NCBI RefSeq assembly: GCF_964213995.1
Contig: NW_027590177.1
Span: 124,001 to 188,000 of the forward strand
Origin: Mustelus asterias
Lineage: Eukaryota
Direction: 5' to 3'
DNA length: 64,000 nt
The notes beneath the pieces are model-generated. The model was not told the origin of the DNA and did no database searches. It saw only the letters and a list, made by a program, of their open reading frames with translations. The position numbers were made by a program, and so were the translations under genes. This document shows, in pieces, positions 16,690 to 64,000 of this stretch; position 1 is the stretch's first letter; each line of letters starts with the position of its first letter.

Positions 16690-17880
16690 TCACTGGTGTT
16701 TCACCAGGTTGTGTGACTGGGTGAATCTCTTTCCACACAAGGAACAAGTGAACGGCTTCTCCTCACTGTGAACTTGTTGGTGTCTCAGCAGAGTGGATGA
16801 CCGGGTGAATCCTTTCCCACACTCAGTGGAGGTGAACGGTCTCTCCTCAGAGTGATTTCGCTGGTGTGCGAGCAGAAGTTTTCTGCTTTTAAAGCTCTTC
16901 TCACAGTCAGAACATTTGAACGGTCTCTCATTTGTGTGAACAAGTTGGTGAGAAGTGAGAGAGGATAAACAAGTGAATCTCTTCCCACACACAGGGCAGG
17001 TGAATGGCCTCTCCCCAGTGTGAACTCGCTGGTGTACAGTGAGGTCGCCTGATCGCCTGAAGCCAGTCCCGCAGTGAGAACACGTGAATGGTCTCTCGTC
17101 AGAGTGAACACATTGATGGTGACGCAGTTCCTCAGAACTTTTATAGCTCTTCCTGCAGTCTGGACATTTAAACGGTCTCTCTTCACTGTGAACTCGTTGG
17201 TGTTTCTGCAGGTTGGGTGATCGGTTAAATCCCTTCCCACATTCAGAGCAGGGGAATGGCCTCTCTCCAGTGTGAATGCATTCATGTGCCACAAGGTGGA
17301 ATGATGTCCTGAACCCTTTCTGGCAGTGGGAACAGCTGAACGCTGTGGAACCGGTGTGAATGTACTGGTGCTCCCGCAATGTGCATCGAGTTTTAAAATT
17401 CTTTCCACACTCAGGGCATTTAAACTCTTGTCGGTGTGAACTCGCTGGTGTCTCTGCAGGGCAGAGAAATCTGTGAATCCCTTCACTCACACGGAGCAGG
17501 TGAAAGGCCTCTCCCCTGTGTGAATGTGTCGCTGTATCAGCAGGGCCAATGACTGAGTAAATCCTTTTCCACATTCGGAGCAGGTGAACTGCCTCTCCCT
17601 GCTGTGAATGCGCTGGTGAATCAACAGGCCAGCTGTCTGAGTGAATCCCTTCCCACACACAGGGCAGGTAAAAGGTGTCCACTCCAGTGTGAGTGCGTTG
17701 GTGATTTTGCAGGTCAACTGGATAATTGAATCCTTTCCCACAGTCTCCACATTTATACGGTCTCTCCCTGGTGTGACTGCGCTTGTGTCTCGACAGGCCA
17801 GATGATCGATTGAAGCCTTGTCCACACACAGAACACATGTACAGTGTCTCCTCTCTGTGAACGGTGCATTTTTCTTCCAT
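16690..17880 (-). CDS. C2H2 ZNF with an internally frameshifted segment (Z2); gene or pseudogene
   Basis: ATG of MEEK at 17880. Two fingers, about 85 out-of-frame codons, then 7 intact fingers and one degenerate finger. The last finger is cut by TGA. Acceptor tttttcag near 17987. Confidence 0.6.
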
Positions 17881-19169
17881 GTTCAAAGGCCGATGATGTT
17901 TAGATCCTGATGAATCAAAGCTCTCTGTCTGATCTTGATGTGATCCTTGATTTACAATTTTCTGTAATTCCTCACCTTCTAATCCCCTGAAAAATGAATT
18001 GAAAACAGAAAGAGGGAAACATGAGAGACAAGCCATAAATATACAAAGACAAAATGTGAAACTGAGTTGAACTAATCTGGTAAATTGTGGGATTGGAACT
18101 AGGAAATAGTGGATATGAAAGCTGCTGGATTGTGACAAAGCCTCAAACTGTTCACCAATGCACTGAGGGAAAGGAGCCCTCCACCTCTTCAGAGCCAACA
18201 ACAAGAATTCAGCCTTTATGCGTGAAGAGGGAGAGGTCAGGAGGAGGGTGATGGAGAGAGACTTTATGCATCAGCAACTCAACCAGGATTTTGGCAGAAT
18301 CTCCTCAACCCACAATCTTCCCCACCTGGAAGTACCAGAGCAGCTGGTACATGGGAAAACCACACAACTCCCTGACTTGGACAAATATCACTGTCCCTTC
18401 AACGTGACTGGGTTAAAATTCTAATACTCTTGCATTGTGGGAGCACCTTTACTATATGGACTGCAGAGGTTCAAGAAGAACAAGGCCAACTATCACCATC
18501 ACAAAGGACAATTGGTGATTGGTAACGTATCGCTGTCTGTGATAGTAATTCAGGACAAATACCTGGGCCTTTTTTGTTCGTTTGCAAATCTGTATGAAAC
18601 CTGCAATTTCATAAGATATAGGAGCAGAATTAGACCATTCGGCCCCTCGGGTCCGCTCCGCCATTCAATCATGGCTGATATGCTTCTCATCCCCATTTTC
18701 CTGCCTTCTCCCCATAACCTTTCAACCCATAACCAATTAAAAATCTGTCCAACTCCTCCTTAAATTACTCACTGCCCAGCATCCACCGCACTTTGGGGTA
18801 GCAAATTCCACAGATGAAAGGAAAACAAGGAAACAAAACCCATGACCGCTACAATCTAGGAGGACAAGGACAGTGGACAGGTGGGGAAAACCACTACTTG
18901 GAAGTCCCCCTCCAAACCACTCACCATCTTGACTTGGAAATATGTCACTGTTCCTTCACTGTCATTGGATCAAAATCCTGGAATTCCCTCCCTAACAGCA
19001 CTATGGATGTACCTACACCACATGGATTGCAGTGATTCAAGAAGACAGCTCACCACCACCTTTTCAAGGGCAATAAATGCTCATCTAGACAACAACTAGA
19101 ATCCATTGAATGATTTTAAAAATGACTTGGAATATCCATGAGAAAACAATCCTGACAGTTACTCAAATA

Positions 19170-20480: not shown

Positions 20481-21857
20481 GTTCCCACCGGATCCTAGTT
20501 TCCAGCACATCAGACTTCCAATTATTGATTCGTGTCAGAAGTAGGTTTACATTGACACTACAATGAAATTACTGCGAAAATCCCCTAGTCGCCACACTCC
20601 GGCGCCTATTCAGGTACACAGAGAGAATTTAACATGGCCAATGCACCTAACCAGCACGTCTTTCGGACTGTGGGAGGAACCCTGAGCACCCGGAGGAAAC
20701 CCACACAGACAGAGGGATGATGTGCAAACTCTACACAGAGAGTGACCCAATCCGGGAACTGAAGCCAGGTCTAACCACTGTGCCACCATGCCTCCCACCA
20801 AACTGGGCAACAGGTGTCTAAACAGTTTCACCCACTCCCAGCCTGCAGCTGATGTTTGCAGGGGTCCATGAACCATGTACATATTCAGTGTGAGAGGTTG
20901 CAGTCCCTGAAGGAGCTGCTTCTCCACTTTTAGTTCCACTTCTATTCTTCCCCACGCTCCTAATCATTGGCTGCCCATGTGGAGAAGGCTTGGGAGGTCA
21001 GAGGATCTTTTCCTGGACCTGCTCTTGGGGCTGGTTAAAACAGTGATTTGTAGATCTGCATGGGGTAACTAGGTTGTTGGCCTCTCTTCCGTGGTCTTGT
21101 CCATGCTTGTGTGGTCCTGCAGAAGAACCGTGCAGTGTCGACTGGAACACTCGAAAACTCCACAACTCAGGGTACAGAGTGTCTCATAGACACTGGAAAC
21201 AAAGTTCTGGTTTAGTTGAGATGGAAGTTTGATTGGACCACAAGATTGGGGAAACAAGATTTGAAATAATATTCCATGGAAACGAGAATTGTCTGTTCTG
21301 ACTTTCTATCCTGTGCTGACAATGATACTGACTCTGTCAATGTCTTTTACAAGGTCCACAAGGGTGATGAATTGCAGATGGGAAACTGAAACCAAACATC
21401 ACATCAAGAGCTGACAGAGTCACTCAATTCATCAGAACCTGAATATCATCGACCTTTAAATGTGGAAGGAGAAATGTTTTTCTGTTTTGGCGGTGCGGAA
21501 AGATTTCAAACATCAGTGTGACTGGAAAAGCACCAAGACTTACACACACACCCGAGTGAGAGTGTTCCAGTAAACTGACTTAGGAAAGAGCTTTAACCAG
21601 TTACACAGCCTGATTTTAAAAAAATCTCACTATTCACAGCAGAGTCAAAGGATGAGAAGATCTTGGAGCAGAATTAGGCCATTGGGCCCATTGAGTTTGC
21701 TCCACTATTCACTGATCTGATATAATCCTGAACTCCACGTTCCTGCCTGATCCCCATGACTCTTGATTCTCTTACTGAGAAATAATACACACGTTCTTTG
21801 TGTGGGCAAGGCTTGAACAGATTGTTTAACCTAGACGGACACAAGGACACCTGTACC

Positions 21858-22919
21858 ATGGAGAAACCATGGAAATGTGGGGACTGTGGGAAGGGATTCA
21901 GTTACCCATCGCTGCTGGAAATACATCGCCGCAGTCACACTGGGGAGAGGCCATTCACCTGCTCCGTGTGTGGGAAGGGATTCATTCAGTCATCCCACCT
22001 GCTGACCCACCAGCAAGTTCACATTGAAGAGAGGCTTTTTAACCACTCTGACAGCGATAACAACTCTAAAAGCTCTGAGGACCTGGTCAAGCACCAGGTT
22101 GTTCACATTGCGAGACAGTTCAGTTGCTGTCACTGTGGGAAGCTGTTTAAACGATCACAGAACCTCATTGAACACGAACGCACTCACACTGGGGAAAGGC
22201 CGTTCACCTGCTCTGTGTGTGGGAAGGGATTCACACGATCAACCCACCTCGCTGCACACCGACTGGTTCACACTGATAACAGACCTTTCAAATGTTCCGA
22301 ATGTGAGAAGAGTTATAAAACCACAAGTGATCTGCTGATACACCAGCGAGTTCACAATGAGGAGAGGCCATTCAGATGTACAGTGTGTGGGAAGGGATTC
22401 ATTCAGTTATCCAGCCTCCAGAAACATCAGCGAGTTCACACTGGGGAGAGGTCATTCACCTGCTCCTTGTGTGGAAAAGGATTCATTTATTTAACCAGCC
22501 TCAGATCACACCAACTTGTTCACTCAGATAAGAAACCTTTCAAATGTTCTGAATGTGAGAAGAGCTTTAAGACCTCAAGTATTCTGCTGAGGCACCAGCA
22601 AGTTCACTCCGGGGAGAGACCATTCACCTGCTCTGACTGTGGAAAGGGATTCACTCGCTCATCCAACCTGCGAACACACGAGCACATTCACACCAGGGAA
22701 AAACCGTTCACTTGCTCTGAGTGTGGGAAGGGATTTTCTCACTCACCCCACCTGCTGAGACACCAACACACTCACAATGGAGAGAGACCGTTCACCTTCT
22801 CTGAGTGTGAGATGGGATTCACTCAGTCAACCCATCTTCTAACTCACCAGCAAATTGACAAATGTCTGGAGGAATTGGATTCTGCTGTTATTGCTGCTGT
22901 TAATCACATCCACGACTGA
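21858..22919 (+). CDS. C2H2 ZNF, 10 intact + 2 degenerate fingers (Z3, MEKPWKC type)
   Basis: ATG at 21858 within ORF 21798-22919. The C-terminus reads into the 3' motif shared by the paralogues. Confidence 0.87.
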   Translation: MEKPWKCGDCGKGFSYPSLLEIHRRSHTGERPFTCSVCGKGFIQSSHLLTHQQVHIEERLFNHSDSDNNSKSSEDLVKHQVVHIARQFSCCHCGKLFKRSQNLIEHERTHTGERPFTCSVCGKGFTRSTHLAAHRLVHTDNRPFKCSECEKSYKTTSDLLIHQRVHNEERPFRCTVCGKGFIQLSSLQKHQRVHTGERSFTCSLCGKGFIYLTSLRSHQLVHSDKKPFKCSECEKSFKTSSILLRHQQVHSGERPFTCSDCGKGFTRSSNLRTHEHIHTREKPFTCSECGKGFSHSPHLLRHQHTHNGERPFTFSECEMGFTQSTHLLTHQQIDKCLEELDSAVIAAVNHIHD

Positions 22920-29689: not shown

Positions 29690-30802
29690 TTACTTGTGAA
29701 TTCGCTGGTGTCTCAGAAGGTTGGATGACTGAGTGAATCTCTTCCCACACTTGGGGCAGGTGAACGGCCTTTCCCTGGTGTGAACTCGCTGGTGTGTCAG
29801 CAGGGAGGATGACTGAGTGAATCCCTTCCCACACTGGGAGCAGGTGAATGGTTTCTCCCCAGTGTGAACTCGCTGATGTACAGTGAGGTCAGATGATGTC
29901 TTGAACCCAGTGTCACAGTGAGAGCACCTGAATGGTTTCTCGTCAGTGTGAACACGTTGATGGCGCATCTGTTCCCCAGAACTTTTAAAGCACTTCTCAC
30001 AGTCTGGGCATTTAAAAGGTCTCTCCTCAGTGTGAACTCGTTGATGGTGGAGCAGTTGTCGGGAACTTTTGTAGCACTTCCTGCAGTCTGGACATTGAAA
30101 TGGTCTCTTCTCATTGTGAACACTCTGGTGATTCAGCAGAGTGGATAATTGAGTGAATCCCTTTCCACACTCAGAACAGGTGAAAGGTCTCTCCCCAGTG
30201 TGAATTCGCTGGTGTGTCCGCAGGTTAGATGACCGACTGAACCCATGCCCACACACAGAGCAGGTGAATGGCCTCTCCCCGGTGTGAGTACACTGGTGTT
30301 CAATGAGTTGAGATGATTGTTTCAACCCAGTCCCACAATGAGAGCATCTGAATGGCCTCTCCTCACTGTGAGCACGTTGATGGAGTATCAGGTCCCGGGA
30401 ACTTTTATAGCACTTCCCACAGTCTGGACATTTAAATGGTCTCTCGTCAGTGTGAACTCGCTGGTGCGCCATCAAGTCAGAGGACCGAGCAAATCCTTTC
30501 CCACACTCTGAGCAAGTGAATGGTCTCTTCCCAGTGTGAACTTGCTGGTGTCTCAGCAGGTTGCCTGACTGAGCGAATCCCTTCCCACAGTTGGAACAAT
30601 TGAAAGGTCTCTCTCCAGTGTGAACTCGCTGGTGTTGCAGCAGGCTGGATGAGCGAGAGAATCCCTTCCCACACTTGGAGCAAGTGAATGACCTCTCCCC
30701 AGTGTGTCTGGGCCAATGAGTTTCCAGTTCCGATGGGGATCTGAATCCCTCCCCACATTCCCACTGTTTCTCCCCACTGTGAATGGTGCTTTTTCCTTCC
30801 AT
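29690..30802 (-). CDS. C2H2 ZNF, 12 intact fingers + 1 degenerate (Z4, MEGKS type)
   Basis: ATG at 30802; uninterrupted array; acceptor tttcacag near 30913. Confidence 0.9.
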
Positions 30803-31429
30803 GTTCAAAACTCACAAATATTCAGCTTACAATAAATTGGGTGACTCCAATCTGATCCTGATGTGATGTTTGGTTTGAGTTTTCTGATTGGAAATCCTCC
30901 GCTTCAGATAATCTGTGAAATTGATTTTAAACAGAAAACGGGATGAGAAAGAACTCACAAAGGCAGGTTGTGAAATTGAGCTGAATGAATCTGGTAAATT
31001 GTGGGGCTGGCACCAGGAAAAAGTGACCATGAAATCTGTTTGATCTTTTGTCAGAAATGAAATGGTCACTAATGTCCTTCAGGGAAGAAAGCCTGCCTCC
31101 GGTCTGAGTCTACACAAGAAATAGGAGCAGGAGTAGGCCATTTGGCCTGTCGAGGCTGCTCTGCCATTCAACACACATCTCATCATCTCAGCCTTAAATA
31201 TATTCACTGATGGAACCCTCTGGGCTAGAGAAATCTATGTCACAAGAGAGACAGTGAGAGAAAGCAAAACAGACAGAAAGAGACAGGGAGAGAGGGGGGC
31301 AAATGGGAGGCATTTTTATAGACCTAGAACTGAACCTCCTAAGCCCTCAACCTCCACCATCTGGATTGTCCAGGGCAGCAGGAGTATTTCAAAACCATTA
31401 CCTGTAAGTTCCCCTCTGAGCTCACACCA

Positions 31430-35762: not shown

Positions 35763-35957
35763 AGCAGCAGCCTGGGAAGGTTTTGGAGGGTTTAAAAGTA
35801 GGCCGCACCTTTGAGCGGGCAGTGGAGTGAGCAGGGGGCAGAGTGAGAGCTGAAGGGCTTTGGCTCAAAACAGGCTTCGGCGAGAACAGGCAGAGGCGAG
35901 AGTAAGTTTTTTCTTTCCCAGAAAGTTTATTCTTGTTTTTCCCCAGACTAAAAAAAA

Positions 35958-36899
35958 ATGCCAGGCAGGATGTTGGAATGCCCCTCTTGCAGGATGTGGG
36001 AGATCAGGGAGACCTCCGGTATCCCTGACGACAGCACCTGCAAAAGATGCATTCAGCTGCAGCTGCTAGCAAAGCGTGTTAGGGAACTGGAGAAGGAGCT
36101 TGATGACCTCCATCTAATTCGGGAGAATGAGAAGTTTATAGACAGTAGCTTTAGGGAGATAGTTACACCTAAGCAGCAGAGCACAGGTAATTGGGTTACT
36201 GTAAGGAGAGGAAATGGCAGTGTGAAAGGACAGGCAGAGCAGGGTTCCCCTGTGGCCATATCCCTCCACAACAGGTATACTGAATTGGATACTGTTGTGG
36301 GAGATGCTTTACCTGGGACAAGCTGCGACAGCCGGAACTCTGATACTGCGTCTGGTTCTACAGCGCAAAAGGGTGGGATGAAGAAGAGGAGAGCAGTAGT
36401 GATAGGGGACTCAATGGTCAGAGGTACAGACCGGAGGTTCTGTGGTCGGGACAGAGACTCCCGCATGGTTTGTTGCCTCCCAGGTGCCAAGGTCAGCGAT
36501 GTCTCTGATCGCGTGCACAGCATTCTAAAGTGGGAAGGTGATCAGCCAGATGTCGTGGTACACGTCGGTACTAATGACGTGGGAAGGAAGAGTGAGGAGG
36601 TCCTAAAGAGTGAGTACAAAGAGCTTGGAAGGAAGTTAAAAAGCAGGACCCCGAGGGTAGTAATCTCAGGATTGCTACCTGAGCCACATGCCAGTGAGGG
36701 CAGGAGTAGGATGCTTGGGCGGATAAACACGTGGCTGAGGAACTGGTGCAGGGGGCAGGGTTTCCAATTCTTGGATCATTGGGACCTCTTTTGGGGCAGG
36801 TGGGACCTGTACAAGAGAGACGGGTTACACCTAAACTACAAGGGGACCAATATACTTGCAGGGAGATTTGCTAGTGTTATTGGGGAGCGTTTAAACTAG
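35958..36899 (+). CDS. CR1 ORF1p (zinc finger/coiled coil + SGNH esterase-like domain)
   Basis: CPSC..CKRC, GDSM, HVGTND and DGLH. Confidence 0.9.
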   Translation: MPGRMLECPSCRMWEIRETSGIPDDSTCKRCIQLQLLAKRVRELEKELDDLHLIRENEKFIDSSFREIVTPKQQSTGNWVTVRRGNGSVKGQAEQGSPVAISLHNRYTELDTVVGDALPGTSCDSRNSDTASGSTAQKGGMKKRRAVVIGDSMVRGTDRRFCGRDRDSRMVCCLPGAKVSDVSDRVHSILKWEGDQPDVVVHVGTNDVGRKSEEVLKSEYKELGRKLKSRTPRVVISGLLPEPHASEGRSRMLGRINTWLRNWCRGQGFQFLDHWDLFWGRWDLYKRDGLHLNYKGTNILAGRFASVIGERLN

Positions 36900-37014
36900 A
36901 TTTGCAGGGGGTGGGAACCAGAGTGCCAGAGCAGATAGTGGAGCAGGGGTAAAAAGACAGGTTAGTTCAAGCAAAATCACAAATGGAAGGGTAGAGTGTG
37001 GTGGAAATAATTTT

Positions 37015-39821
37015 TTGAGGTGTGTCTATTTCAATGCCAGGAGTATTGTGGGGAAGGCAGATGAGCTGAAGGCGTGGATAGACACGTGGAAATATGACAT
37101 TATAGCCATCAGTGAAACTTGGCTACAGGAGGGGCAGGACTGGCAGCTCAATGTTCCAGGGTTCCAATGTTTCAGGCGGGATAGAGGCAGAGGGATAAAA
37201 GGTGGGGGGGTGGCATTGTTGGTCAGGGAAAATGTTACAGCGGTACTCAGGCAGGATAGATTAGGGAGCTTGTCTACAAAGGCCCTATGGGTGGAGCTGA
37301 GAAACAGGAAAGGTATGACCACATTAATGGGCTTGTATTATAGACCACCCAATAGTCAGCGAGAATTGGAGGAGCAAATCAGCGGAGAGATAGCTGACAA
37401 CTGCAAGAAACACAAAGTTGTGATAGTAGGGGATTTTAATTTTCCACATATAGATTGGGACTCGCATACTGTTAAAGGTTTAGACGGGGTAGAGTTTGTA
37501 AAATGTGTTCAGGAGAATTTTCTACATCCGTATATAGAGGTGCCAACTAGAGAGGATGCGATATTGGATCTCCTATTGGGAAATGAGTTAGGGCAGGTGA
37601 TGGATGTGAGTGTGAGGGAATACTTTGGATCCAGTGATCATAATGCCATTAGTTTCAACCTGATCGTGGATAAGGATAGATCTGGTCCTCGAGTTGAAGT
37701 TCTGAACTGGAAAAAGGCCAAATTTGATGAAATGAGAAGGGATCTGGGAAGTGTGGATTGGCACAGGCTGTTCTCTGGTAAGGATGTAATTGGAAAGTGG
37801 GAGGCCTTCAAAGGAGAAATTTTGAGAGTGCAGAGTTTGTATGTTCCTGTCAGGATTAAAGGCAAAGTAAATAGGAATAAGGAACCTTGGTTCTCGAGGG
37901 AGATTGTAACACTGATTAAGAGGAAGAGAGAGTTGTATGAAATGTACAGGCAGCAAGGAACAGATCAGATGCTCGAGGAGTATAAAAAGTGCAAGAAGCT
38001 ACTTAAGAGGGAAATCAGGAGGGCTAAAAGAAGACATGAGGTTGCTTTGGCAGACAGAGTGAAGGAAAATCCAAAGAGCTTCTATAGGTATGTTAGGAGC
38101 AAAAGGATAGTGAGGGATAAAATTGGTCCTCTTGAAGACCAGAGTGGTACACTGTGTATGGAACCAAAAGAGATGGGGGAGATACTAAATGGTTTTTTTG
38201 CATCCGTATTTACTGAGGAAACGGGCATGGAGTCTACGGAAATAGGGCAAACTGGTAGGGAGGCCATGGAACCGTTACAGATTAAAAGGGAGGAGGTGCT
38301 CGCTGTCTTGAGGCAAATCAGAGTGGATAAATCCCCAGGACCGGACAGGGTATTCCCACGGACCTTGAGGGAAGCTAGTGTTGAACTTGCAGGGGCCCTG
38401 GCAGACATATTTAAAATGTCAGTCTTCACGGGGGAGGTGCCGGATGATTGGAGGGTGGCTCATGTTGTTCCGTTGTTTAAAAAAGGTTCCAAAAGAAATC
38501 CGGGAAACTATCGGCCAGTAAGTTTGACGTCGGTGGTGGGCAAGTTATTGGAAGGTGTGATACGGGATAGGATCTACAAATATTTGGATAGACAGGGACT
38601 TATTAGGGAGAGTCAACATGGCTTTGTGCGTGGTAGGTCATGTTTGACCAATCTATTAGAGTTTTTCGAAGAGGTTACCAGGAAAGTGGATGAAGGGAAG
38701 GCGGTGGATGTTGTCTACCTGGATTTCAGCAAGGCCTTTGACAAGGTCCCTCATGGAAGGTTAGTTAGGAAGGTTCAGTCGCTAGGTATACATGGGGAGG
38801 TAGTAAATTGGATAAGACACTGGCTCAATGGAAGAATCCAGAGAGTGCTTGTGGAGGATTGCTTCTCTGAGTGGAGGCCTGTGACTAGTGGTGTGCCGCA
38901 GGGATCGGTGTTGGGTTCATTGTTGTTTGTCATCTATATCAATGATCTGGATGATAATGTGGTCAATTGGATCAGCAAGTTTGCTGATGATACAAAGATT
39001 GAGGTGTAGTGGACAGTGAGGAAGGTTTTCAAAGCTTGCAGAGGTATTTGGACCAACTAGAAAAATGGGCTGAAAAATGGCAAATGGAATTTAACGCAGA
39101 CAAGTGTGAGATATTGCACTTTGGAAGGACAAATCAAAGTAGAACATACAGGGTAAATGGTAGGACTCTGAAGAGTGCAGTTGAACAGAGGGATCTGGGA
39201 ATACAGGTACAGAATTCCCTAAAAGTGACGTCACAGGTGGATAGGGTCGTAAAGAGTGCCTTTGGTACATTGGCCTTTATAAATCGGAGTATCGAGTATA
39301 AAAGTTGGAGTGTTATGGTAAGGTTATATAAGGCATTGGTGAGGCCGAATTTGGAGTATTGTGTACAGTTCTGGTCACCTAGTTACAGGAAGGATGTAAA
39401 TAAGATTGAAAGAGTGCAGAGAAGGTTCACAAGGATGTTGCCGGGACTTGAGAAGCTGAGTTACAGAGAGAGATTGAATAGGTTGGGACTTTATTCCCTG
39501 GAGTGTAGAAGATTGAGGGGAGATTTGATAGAGGTGTATAAGATTTTGATGCGTATAGATAGAGTGAATGCAAGCAGGCTTTTTCCGCTGAGGCTAGGGG
39601 AGAAAAAAACCAGAGGGCATGGGTTAAGGGTGAAAGGAGAAAAGTTTAAAGGGAATATTAGGGGGGGCTTCTTCACGCAGAGAGTGGTGGGAGTGTGGAA
39701 TGAGCTGCGAGATAAAGTGGTAAATGCGGGGTCACTTTTACCATTTAAGAAAAAGTTGGACGGGTTCATGGATGAGAGGGGTGTGGAGGGATATGGTCCA
39801 AGTGCAGGTCAGTGGGACTAG
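37015..39821 (+). pseudogene. CR1 ORF2 (endonuclease + RT), frameshifted just after FADDTKI
   Basis: ORFs 37015-39009 and 39009-39821 are contiguous parts of one protein; attgaggtgta is found where attggaggtgta is expected. Confidence 0.85.
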
Positions 39822-40458: not shown

Positions 40459-41392
40459 ATGCCTTAATTTAAGAAAACATCTTTTGCCCTTACTCAGTAC
40501 TTATCCCTCTATTCCCTCCCGATGCATGCACCCATCCAGATGCCTCCTAAATGTTGCTAATGTGCCTATTTCCACCACCTCCTCTGGTAGCGCATTCCAG
40601 CCACCCACCACTCTCTCCCTGAAACTTTCTCCCTCTCGCCTTGAACCTGTGTCTCCTTGGAAATAGGCGGTCTTAATCATGATGTGGATATGTGGTTGGA
40701 AGCTCAAATTGGGGTGAAATATTTCACCACAGTTGCGAACAGCCTGGTTCAGCCTCAGATAGTTGCCAGGAAGTTGTTGGCGAGGGAATGGAGTTTGTAG
40801 TTCGGACTGAAGACAATGGTTTCAGTCTTCCCAGTATTTATAAAAAAAGTTTCTGTTCTTTGAGTACAGGATGTCAGATAAGTCAGGATGATGTGTGAGT
40901 TGGAGGGGAACTTGGAGTTGATGGGGTGTACTTTTACCTGCTACCCTGGTCTTTGGTAGTGGAGGTTGAGGTCTTGGGAGATTCTGTCAAAGATCTGTTG
41001 AGTTGTAGATGTATAAAATCCCTCTCCTTCACCCCCGATCTCTCCTATTTTTCTCTGTCTCCTCCAAGAGTGTCCACAGTCTTGTGTTGATCCAGACTGG
41101 GTGTCAGGTTTCCTTCCCTGAAGGATATTGGTGAACCAGTTGGGTTTTGATGAAAAACCAGCAATTTTCCTAGTGTCGACCCCGCAAATTCCCAGATTCA
41201 TTCAGCTCAATTTCACAACCTGCTTTTGTGTTTTTGTGGGTTCTCTCTCACTCCCTTTTTTCTGTTTTAAATCAATTTCACAGGGTTTCAGAAGAGGAGG
41301 ATTTGTAGTTTGGAAACTGAAACCAAACATGATATCAGAACCTGATGGAGTTGGTCAATTTATTATAACCTGAATATCGTTGTATTTTGAAC

Positions 41393-42346
41393 ATGGAAGA
41401 AAAAAGCACCGTTCACAGTGGAGAGAAACTGTACACGTGTTCTATGTGTGGACAAGACTTTAACCAATCATCAAGTCTTTCGGAACATAATTGTCGTCAC
41501 AACAGGGAGATGGCATGGAAGTGTGAGGATTGTGGGAAGGGATTCAATTGCCCATCCCTGCTGGAAACCCATCGATGCAGTCATGCTGGGAAGAGACCAT
41601 TCACTTGCTCCCTGTGCGGGAAGGGATTCAATTGGCCATCCAACCTAGCAATACACCAGCGAGTTCACACTGGGGAGAAACCGTTCACCTGCTCCCAGTG
41701 TGGGAAGCAATTTTCTCACTCGTACAACCTGCGGATACACCAGCGAGTTCACACTGGGGAGAAGCCATTCACTTGTTCTCAGTGTGGGAAGGGATTCGCT
41801 CATTCAGCCAATTTGTTGAGACACCAGCAAATTCACACTGGGGAAAAGCCGTTCACCTGCTCCCAGTGTGGGAAGGAATTCGCTAACCAATCTCACCTGC
41901 TAATACACCAGCGAGTTCACACTGGGGAGAGGCCGTTCACTTGTTCTGTATGTGGGAGGGGATTCACTCAGTCATCTGACCTGCTGATACACCAACGAGT
42001 TCACACTGGGGATAGGCCTTTTATCTGCTCCCAATGTGGGAAGGGATTCACTCGTTCAGCCAAGCTGCTGATACACCAGCAAGTTCACACTGGGGAGAAG
42101 CCATTCACCTGCTCTGTGTGTGGAAAGGGATTCAGTCAGTCATTCAATCTATTGGCACATCAGCGAATTCACACTGGGGAGAGGCCTTTCACTTGTTCTC
42201 AATGTGGGAAGAGATTCAGTCAGTCATCCCATCTGCGGACACACCAGCGAATCCACACTGGGGAGAGGCAGTTCACTTGCTCCCAGTGTGGGACGGGATT
42301 CACTACCTCATCCAATCTCCTGAGACACCAGCGAACTCACAAGTAA
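41393..42346 (+). CDS. C2H2 ZNF, 11 fingers (Z5, MEEKS type)
   Basis: ATG at 41393; uninterrupted array; acceptor tttcacag ending at 41283. Confidence 0.9.
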
Positions 42347-51320: not shown

Positions 51321-51842
51321 GTCAGTGCAGTGTGTGTGTTGGAGAACTTGCAGGTGATAGTGTTCACATAATCCCGCTGCCCTGGTCCTTTGAGGTGAGG
51401 AGGTTCAGTGTTTAATGATTCGGTCAAAGTTCTGGCTGAGTGGTTTATGTATAAAATCCCTCTTCTTTGCCTCCTGCCTCTCCACTTCTCTCTTCTTCCC
51501 TCTCTCCCTCCTTCTCCTCCCTCAGAGGCCAAAGTCTTGTCCAGACCAGGTGGTAGGTTCCCTCCCCTGTAGGACATTAGTGAATCAGTTGGGTTTTTAT
51601 GACAATCCAGCAGTTTTCATGGTCACTTTTTCTTAGTGCTGGCCCCAGATTCATTCAGCTCAATTTCACAACCTGCCTTTGTGTTTTGGGGGTTCTCTCT
51701 CACTTCCTTTTTTCTGTTTTAAATCAATTTTGCAGAGTAACAGAAGGGAAGGTTTGCAGTCATGGAACAGGAAACTAAACATCACATCAAAATCTGAGAG
51801 TCAATTATTTTATCGTACCCTGAATATCATTGGATTTTAATC

Positions 51843-52712
51843 ATGGAAGGAAAACGCCCTGTTCACAGTGGGGAGAAACTATACACATGTTCTGTGTGTG
51901 GACGAGACTTCAACCAACCATCTGCCCTGTCAGAACATCAATGTCACCACACTGAGGAGAAGCCGTGGAAATGTGGGGACTGTGGGAAGGGATTCGATTA
52001 CCCATCCCAGTTGGAAATTCATCATCGCAGTCACACCGGGGAGAAACCATTCACCTGCTCGGACTGCGGGAAGGGATTTACTAAATCTTCCACCCTGCTG
52101 ACACACCGGCGCACTCACACTGGGGAGAGACCATTCACCTGCTCCGATTGTGGGAAAGGATTCACTCAGTCATCCAACCTGCTGACCCACCAGCGAGTTC
52201 ACACCGGCGAGAGACCATTCATCTGCTCAGTGTGTGGGAAGGGATTCACTTTTTCAGCCAACCTGATGACGCACCAACAAGTTCACACTGACGTGAGACC
52301 TTTTCAATGCCCAGACTGTGGGAAATCTTTTAAAACTCCCCAGGAACTTATGTACCATCAACGTCTTCACACTGAGGAGAGGCCGTTCAGGTGCTCACTC
52401 TGTGGGACAGGATTCAGACGTTTGTCACATCTCACTGTACACCAGCGCACTCACAGTGGAGAGAAACCATTCACCTGTTCAGAGTGTGGGGAGGGATTCA
52501 CTCAGTCATCCACTCTGCTGAGACACCAGCGAGTTCACACTGGGGAGAGACCATTCATCTGCTCCAAGTGTGGGAAGAGATTCACTCAGTCATCCACTCT
52601 TCATCGACACCAGCGAGTTCACACTGGAGAGAGGCTGTTCATCTGCTCCAAGTGTGGAGAGGGATTCACTAAGTTTCCCAACCTACTGATGCACCAACAG
52701 GTTCACAAGTAA
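51843..52712 (+). CDS. C2H2 ZNF, 10 fingers (Z6, MEGK type)
   Basis: ATG-initiated 289-aa ORF; acceptor ttttgcag near 51735. Confidence 0.9.
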
Positions 52713-53744: not shown

Positions 53745-55186
53745 ATAGAATCATAGAGTTTACAGCACGGAGCAAGGCTCTTCAGCCCAAATTGGTCCAT
53801 GCCAATGCCCATCTAAACTAACCCCATTTGCCTGCATTTGGCCCATCGCCCTCTAAACCTTTCCTATCCATGCTTCTATGCAAATGGCTTTTAAATGTTG
53901 TCAATGTTCCTGCCTCAACTCCTCCAGCAGCTCATTCCACATACATACCACCCTCTGTTTAAAAAGGTTTTCCCCTCTTAACTTAAACCTATGCCCTCTA
54001 GTTTTCAATTCCCCAACCCTGGGAAAAATAATAAGTGCATTTACTCTATCAATGCCACTCATGATATTATACACCTCAAAAGATCACCCCTCAGTCTCCT
54101 ATGCTCCAAAGAAAAAAGTCCTAGCCTGTCTAATCTTTCCTTAACTCAGTCCCTTGAGTCCTGGCAACATTCTTGTAAATCTCTTCTGCACTCTTTCCAG
54201 TTTAGTAACATCTTTCCTGTAGCAAGGCGACCAAAATTGAACACAGTACTCCGGGTGTGGCGTCACCAATGTCCTGTACAACTGCAACATACTTCCAAAC
54301 TACTATAATTAATGCACTGACTGATGAAGGCCAGCACACCAAAAGCCTTCACTGTCCTATCTACCTATGACTCCACCTTTAGAAAACTGTAGATCTGACC
54401 TCCGAAGTCCCTCTGTTCCACGATACTCCTGCAATTCACCATGAAAGCCCAACCTTGATTTGACTTTCCAAAATGCAACACCTCACACTTATTTGTATTG
54501 AACTCCATTTGCCATTTCTCAGCCCACTTCCCCAGCTGATCAAGATCCTGCTGCAATTGTTGATAAACTTCCTCACCGTCTACAATAGCACCTATTTTAC
54601 TGTCATCTGCAAACTTACTGATCATGCCTTGTACATTCTCATCCAAATCGCTGATATCAATTTCAAACAGCAATGGGCCCAGCACTGACCCCTGAGGCAC
54701 ACCACTAGTCACAGGCGCCCAGTCCGAGATGCATCCTTCCACCATTATCCTCTGCTTCCTACCATCAAGCCAATTGTATATCCAATTTGTCAGCTCTCCC
54801 TGGATTCCATGTGATCTAACCTTCCAGAACAGCCCACCATTTCGAACTTAATTAAAGGCCTTACTGAAGTCCATATAGACTGTCTACCACCCTACCCTCG
54901 TCAATCTCCTGGTCACTTCATCAAAGAACTCTAACAAATTTGTGAGGCATGATCTCCCATGCACAAAGCCGTGCTGACTACTCCGAATCAAACCCTGTCT
55001 TTCCAAATGTCTGTATATCTTATCCCTCAGAATCCTCTCTAGTAACTTACCCACCACAGATGTTAGGCTTACCGGTCTATAATTCCCAGGTTTTTCTTTG
55101 CAGCCCTTCTTAAATAAGGCCACAGTATTTGCTGCCCTCCAGTCAACTGGTACCTCACCGTGGCTAACAATGATGCAAGTATCTCA
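53745..55186 (-). mobile_element. Old CR1 that hosts the full-length element; continues at about 59606-59810
   Basis: RT fragments; DKSPGPD..LAEI at 59.6-59.7 kb joins EILASL at 55.18 kb. Confidence 0.85.
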
Positions 55187-55262
55187 TAGAACATAGAACA
55201 GTACAGCACAGAACAGGCCCTTCGGCCCACGATGTTGTGCCGACCTTCATCTGAAACCAAGA

Positions 55263-58169
55263 TCAAGCTATCCCACTCCCTACCATCCTGGTGTGCTCCA
55301 TGTGCCTATCCAATAACCGCTTAAATGTTCCTAAAGTGTCTGACTCCACTATCACTGCAGGCAGTCCATTCCACACCCCAACCACTCTCTGCGTGAAGAA
55401 CCTACCTCTGATATCCTTCCTATATCTCCCACCATGAACCCTATAGTTATGCCCCCTTGTAATAGCTCCAACCACCCGAGGAAATAGTCTTTGAACGTTC
55501 ACTCGATCTATCCCCTTCATCATTTTATAAACCTCTATTAAGTCTCCCCTCAATCTCCTCCGCTCCAGAGAGAACAGCCCCAGCTCCCTCAACCTTTCCT
55601 CATAAGACCGACACTCCAAACCAGGCAGCATCCTGGTAAATCTCCTCTGCACTCTTTCCAGCGCTTCCACATCCTTCTTATAGTGAGGTGACCAGAACTG
55701 CACGCAATATTCCAAATGCGGTCTCACCAAGGTCCTGTACAGTTGCAGCATAACCCCACGGCTCTTAAACTCCAACCCCCTGTTAATAAAAGCTAACACA
55801 CTATATGCCTTCTTCACAGCTCTATCCACTTGAGTGGCAACCTTTAGAGATCTGTGGATATGGACCCCAAGATCTCTCTGTTCCTCCACAGTCTTCAGAA
55901 CCCTACCTTTGACCCTGTAATCCACATTTAAATTTGTCCTACCAAAATGAATCACCTCACATTTATCAGGGTTAAACTCCATTTGCCATTTTTCAGCCCA
56001 GCTTTGCATCCTATCTATGTCTCTTTGCAGCCTACAACACCCCTCCACCTCATCCACGACTCCACCAATCTTGGTGTCATCAGCAAATTTACTGATCCAC
56101 CCTTCAGCCCCCTCCTCTAAGTCATTAATAAAAATCACAAAGAGCAGAGGACCAAGCACCGATCCCTGCGGCACTCCGCTAGCAACCTGCCTCCAGTCCG
56201 AAAATTTTCCATCCACCACCACCCTCTGTCTTCGATCAGACAGCCAGTTACCTATCCAATCGGCCAACTTTCCCTCTATCCCACACCTCCTTACTTTCAT
56301 CATAAGCCGACCATGGGGGACCTTATCAAACGCCTTACTAAAATCCATGTATATGACATCAACCGCCCTACCTTCATCAACACACCTAGTTACCTCCTCA
56401 AAAAATTCTATCAAATTTGTGAGGCACGATTTGCCCTTCACAAATCCGTGCTGACTATCCCGGATTAATCCGCATCTTTCTAAATGGTCGTAAATCCCAT
56501 CCCTAAGGACCTTTTCCATCAATTTACCAACCACCGAAGTCAGACTAACCGGTCTATAATTACCAGGGTCATTTCTATTCCCTTTCTTAAACAGAGGAAC
56601 AACATTTGCCACTCTCCAGTCCTCTGGCACCATCCCCGTGGACAGCGAGGACCCAAAGATCAAAGCCAAAGGCTCTGCAATCTCATCCCTCGCCTCCCAA
56701 AGAATCCTAGGATACATTTCATCAGGCCCAGGGGACTTATCGACCTTCAGTTTATTCAAAACTGCCAATACATCCTCCCTCCGAACATCTATTTCCTCCA
56801 GCCTATTAGCCTGTAACACCTTCTCTTCCTGAAAAACATGGCCCCTCTCCTTGGTGAACACTGAAGAAAAGTATTCATTCATCACCTCGCCTATCTCTAC
56901 TGATTCCATACACAAGTTCCCACCACTGTCCTTGACCGGCCCTAACCTCACCCTGGTCATTCTTTTATTCCTCACATAAGAGTAAAAAGCCTTGGGGTTT
57001 TCCTTGATCCGACCCGCCAAGGACTTCTCATGTCCCCTCCTAGCTCTCCTCAGCCCCTTTTTCAGCTCGTTCCTTGCTAACTTGTAACCCTCAATCGAGC
57101 CATCTGAACCTTGTTTCCTCATCCCTACATAAGCTTCCCTCTTCCTTTTCACAAGACATTCCACCTCTTTTGTGAACCACGGTTCCCTCACTCGGCCATT
57201 TCCTCCCTGCCTGACAGGGACATACCTATCAAGGACACCCAGTATTTGTTCCTTGAAAAAGTTCCACTTTTCATCAGTGCCTTTCCCTGACAGTTTCTGT
57301 TCCCATCTTATGCCCCCTAATTCTTGCCTAATCGCATCATAATTACCTCTCCCCCAATTGTAAGCCTTGCCCTGCCGTCCGGCCCTATCCCTCTCCATTG
57401 CAATAACAAAAGACACCGAATTGTGGTCACTATCTCCAAAGTTCTCTCCCACAACCAAATCTAACACTTGGCCTGGTTCATTTCCCAGTACCAAATCCAA
57501 TGTGGCCTCACCCCTTGTCGGCCTATCCACATATTGTGTCAGGAAACCCTCCTGCACACACTGCACAAAAAGTGCCCCATCCAAACTATTTGACCTACAA
57601 AGGTTCCAATCAATATTTGGAAAGTTAAAGTCCCCCATGACAACTACCCTGTGACCCCCACACGTATCCATAATCTGCTTAGCAATTTCTTCCTCCACAT
57701 CTCTATTACTATTTGGGGGCCTATAGTAAACTCCTAGCAACGTGACCGCTCCTTTCCTGTTTCTAACTGCAGCCCATATTACCTCAGTGTGCATATCCCC
57801 CTCAAAGTGCTTCTCCGCAGCCGTTAAACTATCCTTGATTAACAATGCTACTCCTCCACCTCTTTTACCAGCTTCCCTACACTTACTGAAACATCTATAC
57901 CCCGGAACGTCCAACAACCATTCCTGTCCTTGTTCTACCCACGTCTCCGTAATGGCCACAACATCGTAGTCCCAAGTACCAATCCACGCCCCAAGTTCAT
58001 CCACCTTGTTCCGGATGCTCCTTGCATTGAAGTAGACACACTTCAACCCATCTTCCTGTCTACCGGTACCCACCCTTGACCTTGATACCTTCCCCAATAT
58101 CTCACCACCCTCAACACTGACTTCCGGACTACAACTCCTTTTCCCACTCCCCTGACAAATTAGTTTAAA
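55263..58169 (-). CDS. CR1 ORF2p (APE endonuclease + reverse transcriptase), stop-free
   Basis: YFNARS, ITETW, GDFN, LDL and SDH (endonuclease); PGPD, YRPVSL, QHGF, PQGSVLGP and FADD (RT). No AUG before the endonuclease motifs. Confidence 0.9.
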   Translation of the reverse strand, partial: FKLICQGSGKRSCSPEVSVEGGEILGKVSRSRVGTGRQEDGLKCVYFNARSIRNKVDELGAWIGTWDYDVVAITETWVEQGQEWLLDVPGYRCFSKCREAGKRGGGVALLIKDSLTAAEKHFEGDMHTEVIWAAVRNRKGAVTLLGVYYRPPNSNRDVEEEIAKQIMDTCGGHRVVVMGDFNFPNIDWNLCRSNSLDGALFVQCVQEGFLTQYVDRPTRGEATLDLVLGNEPGQVLDLVVGENFGDSDHNSVSFVIAMERDRAGRQGKAYNWGRGNYDAIRQELGGIRWEQKLSGKGTDEKWNFFKEQILGVLDRYVPVRQGGNGRVREPWFTKEVECLVKRKREAYVGMRKQGSDGSIEGYKLARNELKKGLRRARRGHEKSLAGRIKENPKAFYSYVRNKRMTRVRLGPVKDSGGNLCMESVEIGEVMNEYFSSVFTKERGHVFQEEKVLQANRLEEIDVRREDVLAVLNKLKVDKSPGPDEMYPRILWEARDEIAEPLALIFGSSLSTGMVPEDWRVANVVPLFKKGNRNDPGNYRPVSLTSVVGKLMEKVLRDGIYDHLERCGLIRDSQHGFVKGKSCLTNLIEFFEEVTRCVDEGRAVDVIYMDFSKAFDKVPHGRLMMKVRRCGIEGKLADWIGNWLSDRRQRVVVDGKFSDWRQVASGVPQGSVLGPLLFVIFINDLEEGAEGWISKFADDTKIGGVVDEVEGCCRLQRDIDRMQSWAEKWQMEFNPDKCEVIHFGRTNLNVDYRVKGRVLKTVEEQRDLGVHIHRSLKVATQVDRAVKKAYSVLAFINRGLEFKSRGVMLQLYRTLVRPHLEYCVQFWSPHYKKDVEALERVQRRFTRMLPGLECRSYEERLRELGLFSLERRRLRGDLIEVYKMMKGIDRVNVQRLFPRVVGAITRGHNYRVHGGRYRKDIRGRFFTQRVVGVWNGLPAVIVESDTLGTFKRLLDRHMEHTRMVGSGIA

Positions 58170-59086
58170 TCCCCCTGAAGAGCCGTAGCAAATTTCCCTC
58201 CCAGGATATTGGTGCCCCTCTGGTTCAGGTGCACCCCGTCCTGTTTGTACAGGTCCCACCTTCCCCAGAACGTGTTCCAATTATCCACGTATCTGAAACC
58301 CTCCCTCCTGCACCATCCCTGCAACCACATGTTTAAGTGCACTCTCTCCCTGTTCCTCAACTCGCTATCACGTGGCACCGGTAGCGTACCAGAGATGACC
58401 ACATGTTTTGTCTTTGCTCTCAGCTTCCAGCCCAGCTCCCGAAATTCCTGTTTTAAATCCCCGTCCCTTCTCTTACCTATGTCGTTGGTACCAATGTGTA
58501 CCACGACTTGTGACTGTTTCCCCTCCCCCTTAAGAATCCGGAAAACACGGTCCGAGACGTCACGGACCCTGGCATCCGGTAGGCAACAAACCATCCTCGA
58601 GTCTCTTTTGCTGCCACAGAACCTCCTATCTATCCCTCTAACTAACGAGTCCCCAATAACTATTGCCCTCCCGCTCTCCTCCTTACCCTCCTGAGCCACA
58701 GGGACGGACTCAGTGCCGGAGATCCTCTCACTGCGGCTCACCACTGGTATGTCGTCCCCCTCAACCGTATCCAAAGCGGAATACTTATTGCTAAGGGGAA
58801 CGGCCACAGGGGATCCCTGCACCGACTGCTTCTTCCCAGCCCCTCTCAGCGTCACCCATCTATTTTCATTCCGCGGAGTAACTGTATCCCTGAAGCTTCT
58901 GTCTATGGCCATCTCTGCATCCCTAATGATCCTAAGTTCCTCCAACTCCAGCTCCAGTTCCCTTACACGGTTTTGGAGGAGCTGCAGATGGATGCACTTC
59001 TCACAGGTATAATCAGCAGGGACACTGACGTCGTCCCTCACCTCGAACATAGTGCAAGAGGAACATTGCACTGCCTTCACACCCAT
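58160..59086 (-). CDS. CR1 ORF1p (CxxC..CxxC zinc finger, coiled coil, SGNH esterase-like domain)
   Basis: CSSC..CEKC, heptad ELELEELR, and the GDSL, HIGTND and DGVH blocks. Confidence 0.9.
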   Translation of the reverse strand: MGVKAVQCSSCTMFEVRDDVSVPADYTCEKCIHLQLLQNRVRELELELEELRIIRDAEMAIDRSFRDTVTPRNENRWVTLRGAGKKQSVQGSPVAVPLSNKYSALDTVEGDDIPVVSRSERISGTESVPVAQEGKEESGRAIVIGDSLVRGIDRRFCGSKRDSRMVCCLPDARVRDVSDRVFRILKGEGKQSQVVVHIGTNDIGKRRDGDLKQEFRELGWKLRAKTKHVVISGTLPVPRDSELRNRERVHLNMWLQGWCRREGFRYVDNWNTFWGRWDLYKQDGVHLNQRGTNILGGKFATALQGDLN

Positions 59087-59226: not shown

Positions 59227-59601
59227 AATGAGGCTGAAAACTGCAAGTTAAGCACTTTTAAACCCTCCAAAAACCTTCCCAGACTCCTGCTGGGCCCACT
59301 TCCTGTTTTAAAAAAAAACCTCCGATTTTTTACACAAATTTAACTTAAAATAAATAAATAAATGTAGTGAACAAACCAACTGCCTTCTCCTCAGCCTGGT
59401 CCTGTGGAACAATGAGGCTGAAAACTGCAAGTTAAGCACTTTTAAACCCTCCAAAAACCTTCCCAGACTCCTGCTGGGCCCACTTCCTGTTTTAAAAAAA
59501 AACCTCCGATTTTTTACACAAATTTAACTTAAAATAAATAAATAAATGTAGTGAACAAACCAACTGCCTTCTCCTCAGCCTGGTCCTGTGGAACAATGAG
59601 G
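59227..59601. repeat. 184-bp tandem repeat x2 at the CR1 5' end
   Basis: Units start at 59227 and 59411; a 7-bp partial unit starts at 59595. Confidence 0.93.
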
Positions 59602-62482: not shown

Positions 62483-63409
62483 TCACTTGTGAACTTGCTG
62501 GTGTCGAACCAGGTTGTTTGACTGAGCAAATCCCTTCCCACAGACACAGCAGGTAAACAACCTCTCCCCAGTGTGAACTCGCTGGTGTCTCAGAAAGTTG
62601 GATGAATTGGCGAATCTTTTCCCACATTTGGAGCAGGTGAACGCCCTCTCCCCAGTGTGTGTACGTTGGTGTGACAGCACCTCACGTTTGCTTTTAAAAC
62701 ATTTTTCACAATCAGAACATTTAAAAGGTCTCTGATCAGTGTGAACCAGTTTGTGAACAGCAAGGTGGGATAATCGAGAAAAATTCTTGCCACACATGGA
62801 GCAGGCGTATGGTCGTTCCCCAGTGTGAATTCGCTGGTGTATCAGAAAGTCAGATGAATGAATGAATCCCTTCCCACATTCGGAACAGGTGAATGGCCTG
62901 TCTCCAGTGTGGGTACGTTGGTGTGTCAGCATCTGGTACCTGCTTTTAAAGCTCTTCTCACAGTCAGAACAGTGAAAAGATCTCTGATCAGAGTGAACCA
63001 GTTGGTGGGCAGTGAGGTGGGTCGACCGAGAGAATCCCTTCCCACACACACAGCAGTTGAATGGTCTCTCTCCGGTGTGAACTCGCTGGTGTGTCCGCAG
63101 GTGGGCTGACTGAGTGAATTCCCTCCCACATGCGGTGCAGGTGAATGGTCTCTCCCCAGTGTGAACTCGCTGGTGTACCCTAAGATCAGATGAATTAATG
63201 AATCCCTTCCCACATGTGGAGCAAGTGAACGGTCTCTCCTCAGTGTGAATGTGCTGGTGTCTCAGAAGGTCAGTTGACCGTGCGAATCCCTTCCCACACG
63301 TGGAGCAGGGGAATGGTTTCTCCCCAGTGTGAGTGTGTTGATGATATTCCAGCCGTGACTGGTATTTGAATTCCTTCCCACAGTCCTCACATTTCCACGG
63401 TTTCTCCAT
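62483..63409 (-). CDS. C2H2 ZNF, 11 fingers (Z7, MEKPWKC type)
   Basis: ATG-initiated 308-aa ORF; acceptor tatttacag near 63746. Confidence 0.9.
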
Positions 63410-64000
63410 GGTGCAGTTGTTCTTATGTCTCTCCAGGTTGGATGATCAGTTGAAGCCTGGTCCACACACAGAATGTGTACGATCTCTCCTCGCTGTGAAT
63501 GATTTTCAGGCTGTGTAACTGGATAAAAGTCTTTCCACAGTCAGCTCACTGGAACACTCTCACTCGGTGTGTGTGTGTCGGTGCTTTTCCAGTCACATTG
63601 ATATTTGAAATCTTCTCCCACAGACAGAACAGACAAACATTTCTCCTTCCACATTCAAATATTCAGGTCCTGATAAATTGAGTCACGATAAGATCCTCAT
63701 AATTGGTTTTACTTTCCTGTCTGTAAATCCTCCTCTTCTAAACCCTGTAAATAGAGTTCATATAAAATTACATAGAACATATAGAATAAAAACAGGTCAT
63801 TCTGCCCAGCTTGTCTCTGCTGGTGTTGAAACTCCACACACTTCTCCTCCATTGCATCTCCCTCAGCTCAATCTTTCAGTTGGTTTTTCTATTCCTCTCT
63901 CTCTCTCTCTCATGTACTCGTTTAGTTTCCTTTTGAAAGGATCTCAGCCTTTTGCCACAACCACTTCCTTTGGTAATGAATTCCACATTCTAATTATTCT

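Follow-up and report, generated by a model that had tools for sequence, protein, structure and literature searches.

Conserved slippery heptamer at the ORF1-ORF2 junction of a shark CR1 retrotransposon and its relatives points to programmed -1 ribosomal frameshifting

The abstract of a 2026 survey (PMC13343379) describes elements of the CR1 group as dominant among the retrotransposons in most species of vertebrates; the main text of that survey does not address how their second open reading frame (ORF2) is made. Passages of PMC3894237 and PMC5009743 describe the translation of ORF2 in long interspersed nuclear elements (LINEs) as an open question. Among APE-type retrotransposons without long terminal repeats, TRE5-A and TRE3-A of Dictyostelium are stated to require a -1 frameshift for ORF2 (a passage of PMC5911963, to which the available text of PMC5006619 adds nothing). 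The canonical CR1 LINEs of vertebrates, as portrayed in parts of PMC13343379 and PMC3905857, have an esterase in ORF1, an APE endonuclease and a reverse transcriptase (RT) in ORF2 and a short microsatellite tail. An element of the same kind lies within the window studied here, a stretch of 64,000 nt from Mustelus asterias (NCBI RefSeq assembly GCF_964213995.1, contig NW_027590177.1, forward-strand positions 124,001 to 188,000; coordinates below are those of the window). Located on the minus strand between about 59601 and 55185, it is a full-length, intact LINE of the shark type of CR1. The evidence set out below indicates that its ORF2 very probably arises through programmed -1 ribosomal frameshifting and forms part of a predicted ORF1-ORF2 fusion of 1,274 residues.

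ORF1 (58160..59086, minus strand; 308 residues from the ATG at 59086) ends in GAT TTA AAC TAA. The final two codons, Leu-Asn, belong to the heptamer U_UUA_AAC (58163..58169, minus strand), which lies in the X_XXY_YYZ register, and the UAA stop (58160..58162, minus strand), a candidate pause signal, follows directly 3' of it. ORF2 (55263..58169, minus strand; 968 codons from the heptamer) is in the -1 frame, where the heptamer and the bases after it are read as F-K-L-I-C-Q, and this frame is free of stops from 58280, a TTG, to 55263. Both the YFN and the ETW motif of the endonuclease (N48 of YFNARS and E75 of ITETW) precede the first in-frame Met of ORF2 (57792..57794, minus strand), which is residue 126 from the heptamer and stands 51 codons beyond E75. 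E75 aligns with E43 of an L1 endonuclease chain, which we take to be the catalytic Glu of that enzyme. The linker between slip site and endonuclease (58041..58159, minus strand) is free of AUG and stop codons when read in the -1 frame, and the sole upstream in-frame ATG (58316) is separated from ORF2 by a stop before 58280. An earlier sequence-only reading of this DNA had described the junction in these terms, with a fusion of roughly 1270 residues; its positions and frames were exact, and the computed length of the predicted fusion is 308 + 966 = 1,274 residues.

Both reading frames have the parts expected of a vertebrate CR1. ORF1 combines an N-terminal Cys motif and a coiled-coil-like stretch, both recognised by eye, with an SGNH esterase that carries the GDS, GTN and DGVH blocks (PF13472, E 3.9e-12), and a profile built from 31 ORF1s matches the 'ORF1-encoded protein' of PDB 4c1b (E 1.9e-35). 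ORF2 encodes an APE endonuclease (about 58034-57423) and an RT (about 56582-55863), with matches to PF03372, PF00078 and L1 endonuclease structures. Against an expectation of 0.22, the window contains TTTAAACTAR twice, in each case where a CR1 ORF1 ends, and 2 of 100 shuffles reached two occurrences. Other slippery heptamers lie in register at two places among the 309 codons of ORF1. Since roughly 1% of codons have such a heptamer in register, one element alone is weak evidence and the case therefore depends on conservation.

Copies were sampled blind to the junction, using an ORF1 pattern 300-400 nt upstream of it, and the first 100 by position of 2,725 matches in the 3.68-Gb genome were taken; these form 19 clusters. 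The junction was located with up to two mismatches to the heptamer-stop, and owing to this tolerance the four copies in which it was not located are counted against conservation. Among the 96 located junctions the heptamer is exactly TTTAAAC in 84 and is followed by TAG or TAA in 89. The lower mismatch rate of the heptamer within families was left unused, since the junctions were found by that same motif. The frame of the endonuclease motif could be read in 77 copies (19 being unreadable) and is -1 in 49, 0 in 17 and +1 in 11. In the five large lineages the modal distances from slip site to endonuclease are 135, 138/144, 147, 156 and 183 nt, all multiples of 3, off-frame distances are scattered as expected from decay, and none has a conserved Met ahead of the endonuclease motif. 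Counted from the heptamer, the frame stays open over 864, 930 and 1,006 codons in intact copies from further lineages. The window itself holds a second CR1 lineage (55% amino acid identity) with the TTTAAAC heptamer followed by UAG (36890..36899, plus strand), in a copy that is 1 nt short in a G-run; 24/30 loci of its family continue in the -1 frame and 6/30, the window copy included, carry the G-run deletion. This second element is near full length (35952-39821) and has an additional frame break near 39005. The sequence-only reading had staked its proposal on the conservation of heptamer and -1 register across CR1 families, and both are kept in the lineages compared here.

Given that G-run length differs among copies and that ORF1 and ORF2 are joined in public gene models (P0244, swallow; P0051, stingray), it is conceivable that the two frames are connected in the RNA, either through splicing or because the polymerase slips and inserts a base at the heptamer. 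This is very unlikely: LINE copies arise from RNA, yet those 84 of 96 junctions hold an unexpanded heptamer, the runs within the heptamer are only 3 nt long and, because the G-run lies after the stop, its indels cannot remove the stop. Contigs assembled from four presumed-RNA runs of other organisms list no heptamer insertion and no joint that removes the stop, which is no evidence either way since contigs drop rare variants.

Comparison of ten lineages with gap-free ORF1 ends separates constraint on the nucleotides from constraint on the protein. Nine of these lineages come from the genome and one from a metagenome contig, three are represented by a single copy, and lineages without a gap-free copy were excluded; they are 38-73% identical in amino acids and have 32-75% of third bases in common. 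TTA and AAC are each present in 10/10 lineages, and T is the last base of the codon before them in 10/10, although this codon encodes seven different residues. In the controls (126 codons), the codon is kept at 0/20 invariant residues and the third base at 1/78 variable residues. The synonymous bases of the heptamer are frozen, to a degree beyond the needs of the protein. It could be argued that at the protein level ORF1 needs its Leu-Asn and an ORF2 with a start further upstream needs its Phe-Lys-Leu, which by the genetic code would fix most of the seven bases with no slippage, and in the window's family the -1 frame is indeed open for 37 codons upstream of the heptamer. However, a -1-frame stop stands precisely five codons before the heptamer in 8/10 lineages, two of them with a second stop one codon before it, and a stop one codon upstream is found in family 1 (7/7) and family D (14/14). 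With a -1-frame stop shortly before the heptamer in most lineages, an upstream start cannot feed ORF2. Furthermore, the variant G_GGA_AAC described below substitutes G for both L and F at once, and the L2-like sister clade shows no requirement for Leu-Asn; the ORF1 C-termini of that clade are variable, hence the esterase fold has no need of these residues. Double coding is largely refuted and is regarded as scarcely credible. The -1-frame stop five codons upstream may serve to remove ribosomes that slip early, or may only mirror the ORF1 protein.

Distant relatives retain the arrangement with a different heptamer. Two metagenome contigs of a distant clade, L104 and L098, end ORF1 in G_GGA_AAC-UAG, another canonical heptamer; L104 continues for 930 codons in the -1 frame with an ORF2 42% identical to that of the window, and the contig of L098 stops 26 nt after the ORF1 stop. 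On the sequences compared, G_GGA_AAC is a compensatory variant of the putative slip site. In total, 17 metagenome loci were found, three of which back a -1 site; four are L2-like with an in-frame UGA, five end before the end of ORF1 (L088, L093, L096, L100, L101) and five are broken or unclear (L090, L094, L097, L099, L102), L097 being a member of the L2-like clade that ends C_CUG_AAC-UAG, which is not a slippery site. The single GTDB match, L105, was rejected as a chance bacterial match; plasmids gave no match and scans of viral contigs found nothing.

Protein databases extend the pattern to further vertebrates. An intact end is present in 139 of the 217 homologous proteins, and these end in LN (72), GN (18), KN (1) or otherwise (48); the 139 ends are related sequences, so that the counts are not independent. 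The residue before the end fits a U-ending codon in 71/72 LN proteins and a G-ending codon in 18/18 GN proteins. Named carriers of LN, on protein evidence, include sharks, rays, sturgeon, eel, frog, lizards, snake, turtles and swallow, and frame-broken gene models of stingray and anole read FKL at the junction. In an esterase tree (last residues excluded, midpoint root, short alignment) the vertebrate clade has LN in 29/32, the ends of the L2-like clade are variable and a third clade mixes GN, KN, LN and FF. Within the distant ORF1s, a subclade (P0109, P0129, P0154, P0223, P0227) has ends of FF or FF-x, which at the protein level would fit a U-rich slippery site. A record named as an SGNH hydrolase of Pseudomonas aeruginosa (P0008) is 70% identical to the window's ORF1 and is likely host DNA in a bacterial assembly. 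P0052, an ORF of 1,031 residues in which an esterase with the end YLN lies C-terminal to the endonuclease and RT, is either a chimera of nested elements or an unusual architecture. A search of low power for naturally fused long proteins gave four matches, none of them a clean single-ORF CR1.

Several observations weigh against frameshifting. The endonuclease motif is outside the -1 frame in 28/77 readable copies, which are read as decay, and 48/139 intact-ended ORF1 homologues end in neither LN, GN nor KN. DNA-level support beyond this genome comes from three contigs (L089, L098, L104), the support from tetrapods being at the protein level. No conserved stem-loop was detected 3' of the site by plain minimum free energy folding, a model that does not include pseudoknots (48 folds of 16 representatives, with z <= -2 in only 3), the model favoured a two-tier quadruplex in only 5/16 representatives, and there is no Rfam match. 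Nor did a lineage's own 3' tail stand out in pairing with the sequence behind the site, at -20.9 kcal/mol against -20.7 for foreign tails and with ranks of 2-8 out of 8. Ahead of the endonuclease motif there is an in-frame Met in lineage D (residue 49), L104 (64), family 1 (75, 79) and family 12 (4), and the stop is overlapped by UAAUG in 5/96 copies and by UGAUG in 1/96.

The last of these observations favour the chief competing explanation, termination-reinitiation, in which the ribosome would restart in the -1 frame near the ORF1 stop, either at an overlapping AUG of the SART1 type (UAAUG, as given in a section of PMC3894237) or with no AUG, as in mammalian L1, whose ORF2 AUG can be replaced by any sense codon according to passages of PMC1965478 and PMC5009743. 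Reinitiation could be at work in those few lineages that carry UAAUG or have an AUG further on. As a general explanation it is unlikely for the following reasons: first, it leaves both the frozen synonymous bases upstream of the stop and the switch to G_GGA_AAC unexplained. Second, the window reads UAAUU, and the -1 codon that overlaps the stop in the large lineages is GAT, GTT, GAA, GTA, GAG, AAT, ATT or ATA. Reinitiation of the type that depends on a termination upstream ribosome-binding site (TURBS) employs a calicivirus-type UGGGA motif 40-80 nt upstream of the stop. UGGGA is found at -41 in the window's family, but has no common offset across lineages and is missing in 7/7 copies of family 17. 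Programmed -1 slippage, as the sequence-only reading proposed, is supported by the conserved heptamer, stop and -1 register, the frozen synonymous sites and the G_GGA_AAC variant.

As for the stimulator, the G-rich patch that the sequence-only reading had named together with the adjacent stop is present and conserved, although no structure could be assigned to it. The motif CAGGGGAGTGGGAA begins at 58154, 8 nt past the heptamer, and the patch (58141..58154, minus strand), a candidate stimulator, ranks among the G-richest 0.1-3% of the element's 16-nt windows in 8/8 lineages tested, a rank somewhat inflated because the best of ten offsets was taken. The relatives with G_GGA_AAC also have a G-rich patch. 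Since the patch codes for Gly-rich residues, its conservation may be partly at the protein level. A search for long-range pairing across the element found nothing conserved, and partners in the tail did not recur. Compared with a canonical -1 site, the window's element has the heptamer in register and a -1 ORF that cannot be reached from an upstream start; folding of the 16 representatives gave no conserved counterpart of the stem-loop that such a site has 5-9 nt downstream. This lack of a classical stimulator could be taken to suggest that the heptamer is conserved for some other signal, such as 3' processing, ORF1 protein (ORF1p) binding or termination context, with ORF2 made by an unknown route. 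Such a coincidence is hard to credit, as the variants U_UUA_AAC, G_GGA_AAC and, judged from protein, A_AAA_AAC obey the X_XXY_YYZ rule and its register exactly. Synthetic quadruplexes can stimulate shifting, natural cases not being known in 2016 according to a section of PMC5009743. A passage of PMC3894237 states that a LINE requires little ORF2p, for which reason a low rate of shifting may suffice.

In the proposed mechanism, the ribosome would pause at the stop with the Leu and Asn tRNAs on UUA-AAC. Most ribosomes would end at UAA or UAG and release ORF1p, and a minority would re-pair one base back, from UUA-AAC to UUU-AAA, and continue, giving a predicted junction peptide of ..QGDLN-LICQG.. 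The expected outcome is a high ratio of ORF1p to RT, with the enzyme tethered to an ORF1p subunit in the manner of Gag-Pol. The weakest step is the stimulation, which would likely come from the adjacent stop together with the G-rich patch, acting as a weak quadruplex or a protein-binding site, rather than from a classical hairpin or pseudoknot. Judged from sequence, the conserved recoding signal is real and strongly conserved, and is a variant of a known mechanism.

No report of frameshifting in CR1 was found in the literature searched, which did not extend to the older primary CR1 papers (1997-2005) and Repbase reports, where an overlap may be mentioned; priority is uncertain because those older papers lay outside the literature compared. 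The sections of the 2016 frameshifting review that were available (PMC5009743) contain no mention of 'CR1'. If frameshifting is confirmed, the active enzyme would bear an esterase and coiled-coil head, which would alter views of CR1 particle assembly and the design of engineered CR1 elements, and CR1 would be a very widespread case of -1 frameshifting in cellular genomes, with an unusual stimulator. The slip site would also account for the truncated or spliced CR1 ORF2 models that annotation pipelines produce.

The window's family is young, with all 40 scored junction matches (of 1,299 candidates) about 100% identical. The nearest named homologues of its ORF1 are from sharks, rays and skates, and in the esterase tree members of the family cluster, with a support of 0.88, among the ORF1s of shark, ray, fish, turtle and lizard and separately from the L2-like clade; the name CR1 derives from this tree of the esterase rather than the RT, from the label of the sequence-only reading and from general background. 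The 5' untranslated region (59227..59601, minus strand) comprises two identical 184-nt tandem monomers, with no ATG from 59620 to the start of ORF1. Copies of the family begin at differing points within or beyond these monomers, resembling the monomer promoters of mouse L1. The 3' untranslated region (55185..55262, minus strand) has a GGGCC..GGCC motif common to the lineages and a short (GTTCTAT)n microsatellite tail. The intact element is inserted in the ORF2 of an older CR1 (59814-59584 and 55168-54077), and (T)GAGAT, which occurs both at 59611-59606 and where the tail ends, may represent a target duplication of 5-6 bp. More broadly, the window is a zinc-finger gene cluster packed with CR1 fragments, in which six ORFs encode C2H2 zinc-finger arrays (16690-18270, 21786-22919, 29690-30811, 41369-42346, 51798-52712 and 62483-63445).

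Among described systems, L2-type LINEs have the same esterase ORF1 and likely also make an ORF1-ORF2 fusion, by readthrough in frame 0 instead of a -1 shift. Kajikawa et al. in 2012 reportedly proposed stop-codon readthrough for zebrafish ZfL2-1. In four L2-like metagenome contigs (L091, L092, L095, L103) the frame continues past a single UGA-C and is open for 1,039 codons in L091 and 1,027 in L095. The contexts, UGA-CUAG in L103 and UGA-CAA in L092 and L095, are of the readthrough type. The ORF2 of these elements is only 23-25% identical to that of the window, and its position in frame behind one UGA-C suggests a fusion made by readthrough, which would make fusion the common product of esterase LINEs. 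A tentative extension, which we consider plausible though somewhat short of probable, is that all LINEs with an esterase ORF1 make their RT as a Gag-Pol-like fusion, the jawed-vertebrate CR1s and their distant relatives by a -1 shift and the L2-like clade by UGA readthrough, and that what drives slippage in CR1 is a new stimulator with little structure (stop and G-tract, possibly a natural quadruplex or the binding of a host protein or ORF1p) conserved for more than 400 million years.

SART1, with its UAAUG coupling, and mammalian L1, with AUG-independent reinitiation, likewise have a bicistronic RNA and a low output of ORF2 (parts of PMC3894237, PMC10275272 and PMC1965478). Both produce a separate ORF2p, whereas the window element has neither UAAUG nor a spacer between its ORFs. 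TRE5-A and TRE3-A, as known here from the single statement in PMC5911963, are likened to the window's CR1 by the -1 frameshift, but their ORF1 is unrelated and their host is an amoebozoan. The closest likeness in the site itself is to coronavirus 1a/1b and retroviral gag-pol, for which passages of PMC5009743 give the same class of heptamer (U_UUA_AAC of infectious bronchitis virus; G_GGA_AAC) with the polymerase downstream in the -1 frame. The CR1 sites differ from these in that no 3' stem-loop was found, the stop follows immediately and, 8 nt downstream, there is a G-rich patch. The logic by which a structural protein is extended into an enzyme would be shared between coronavirus and gag-pol sites and CR1.

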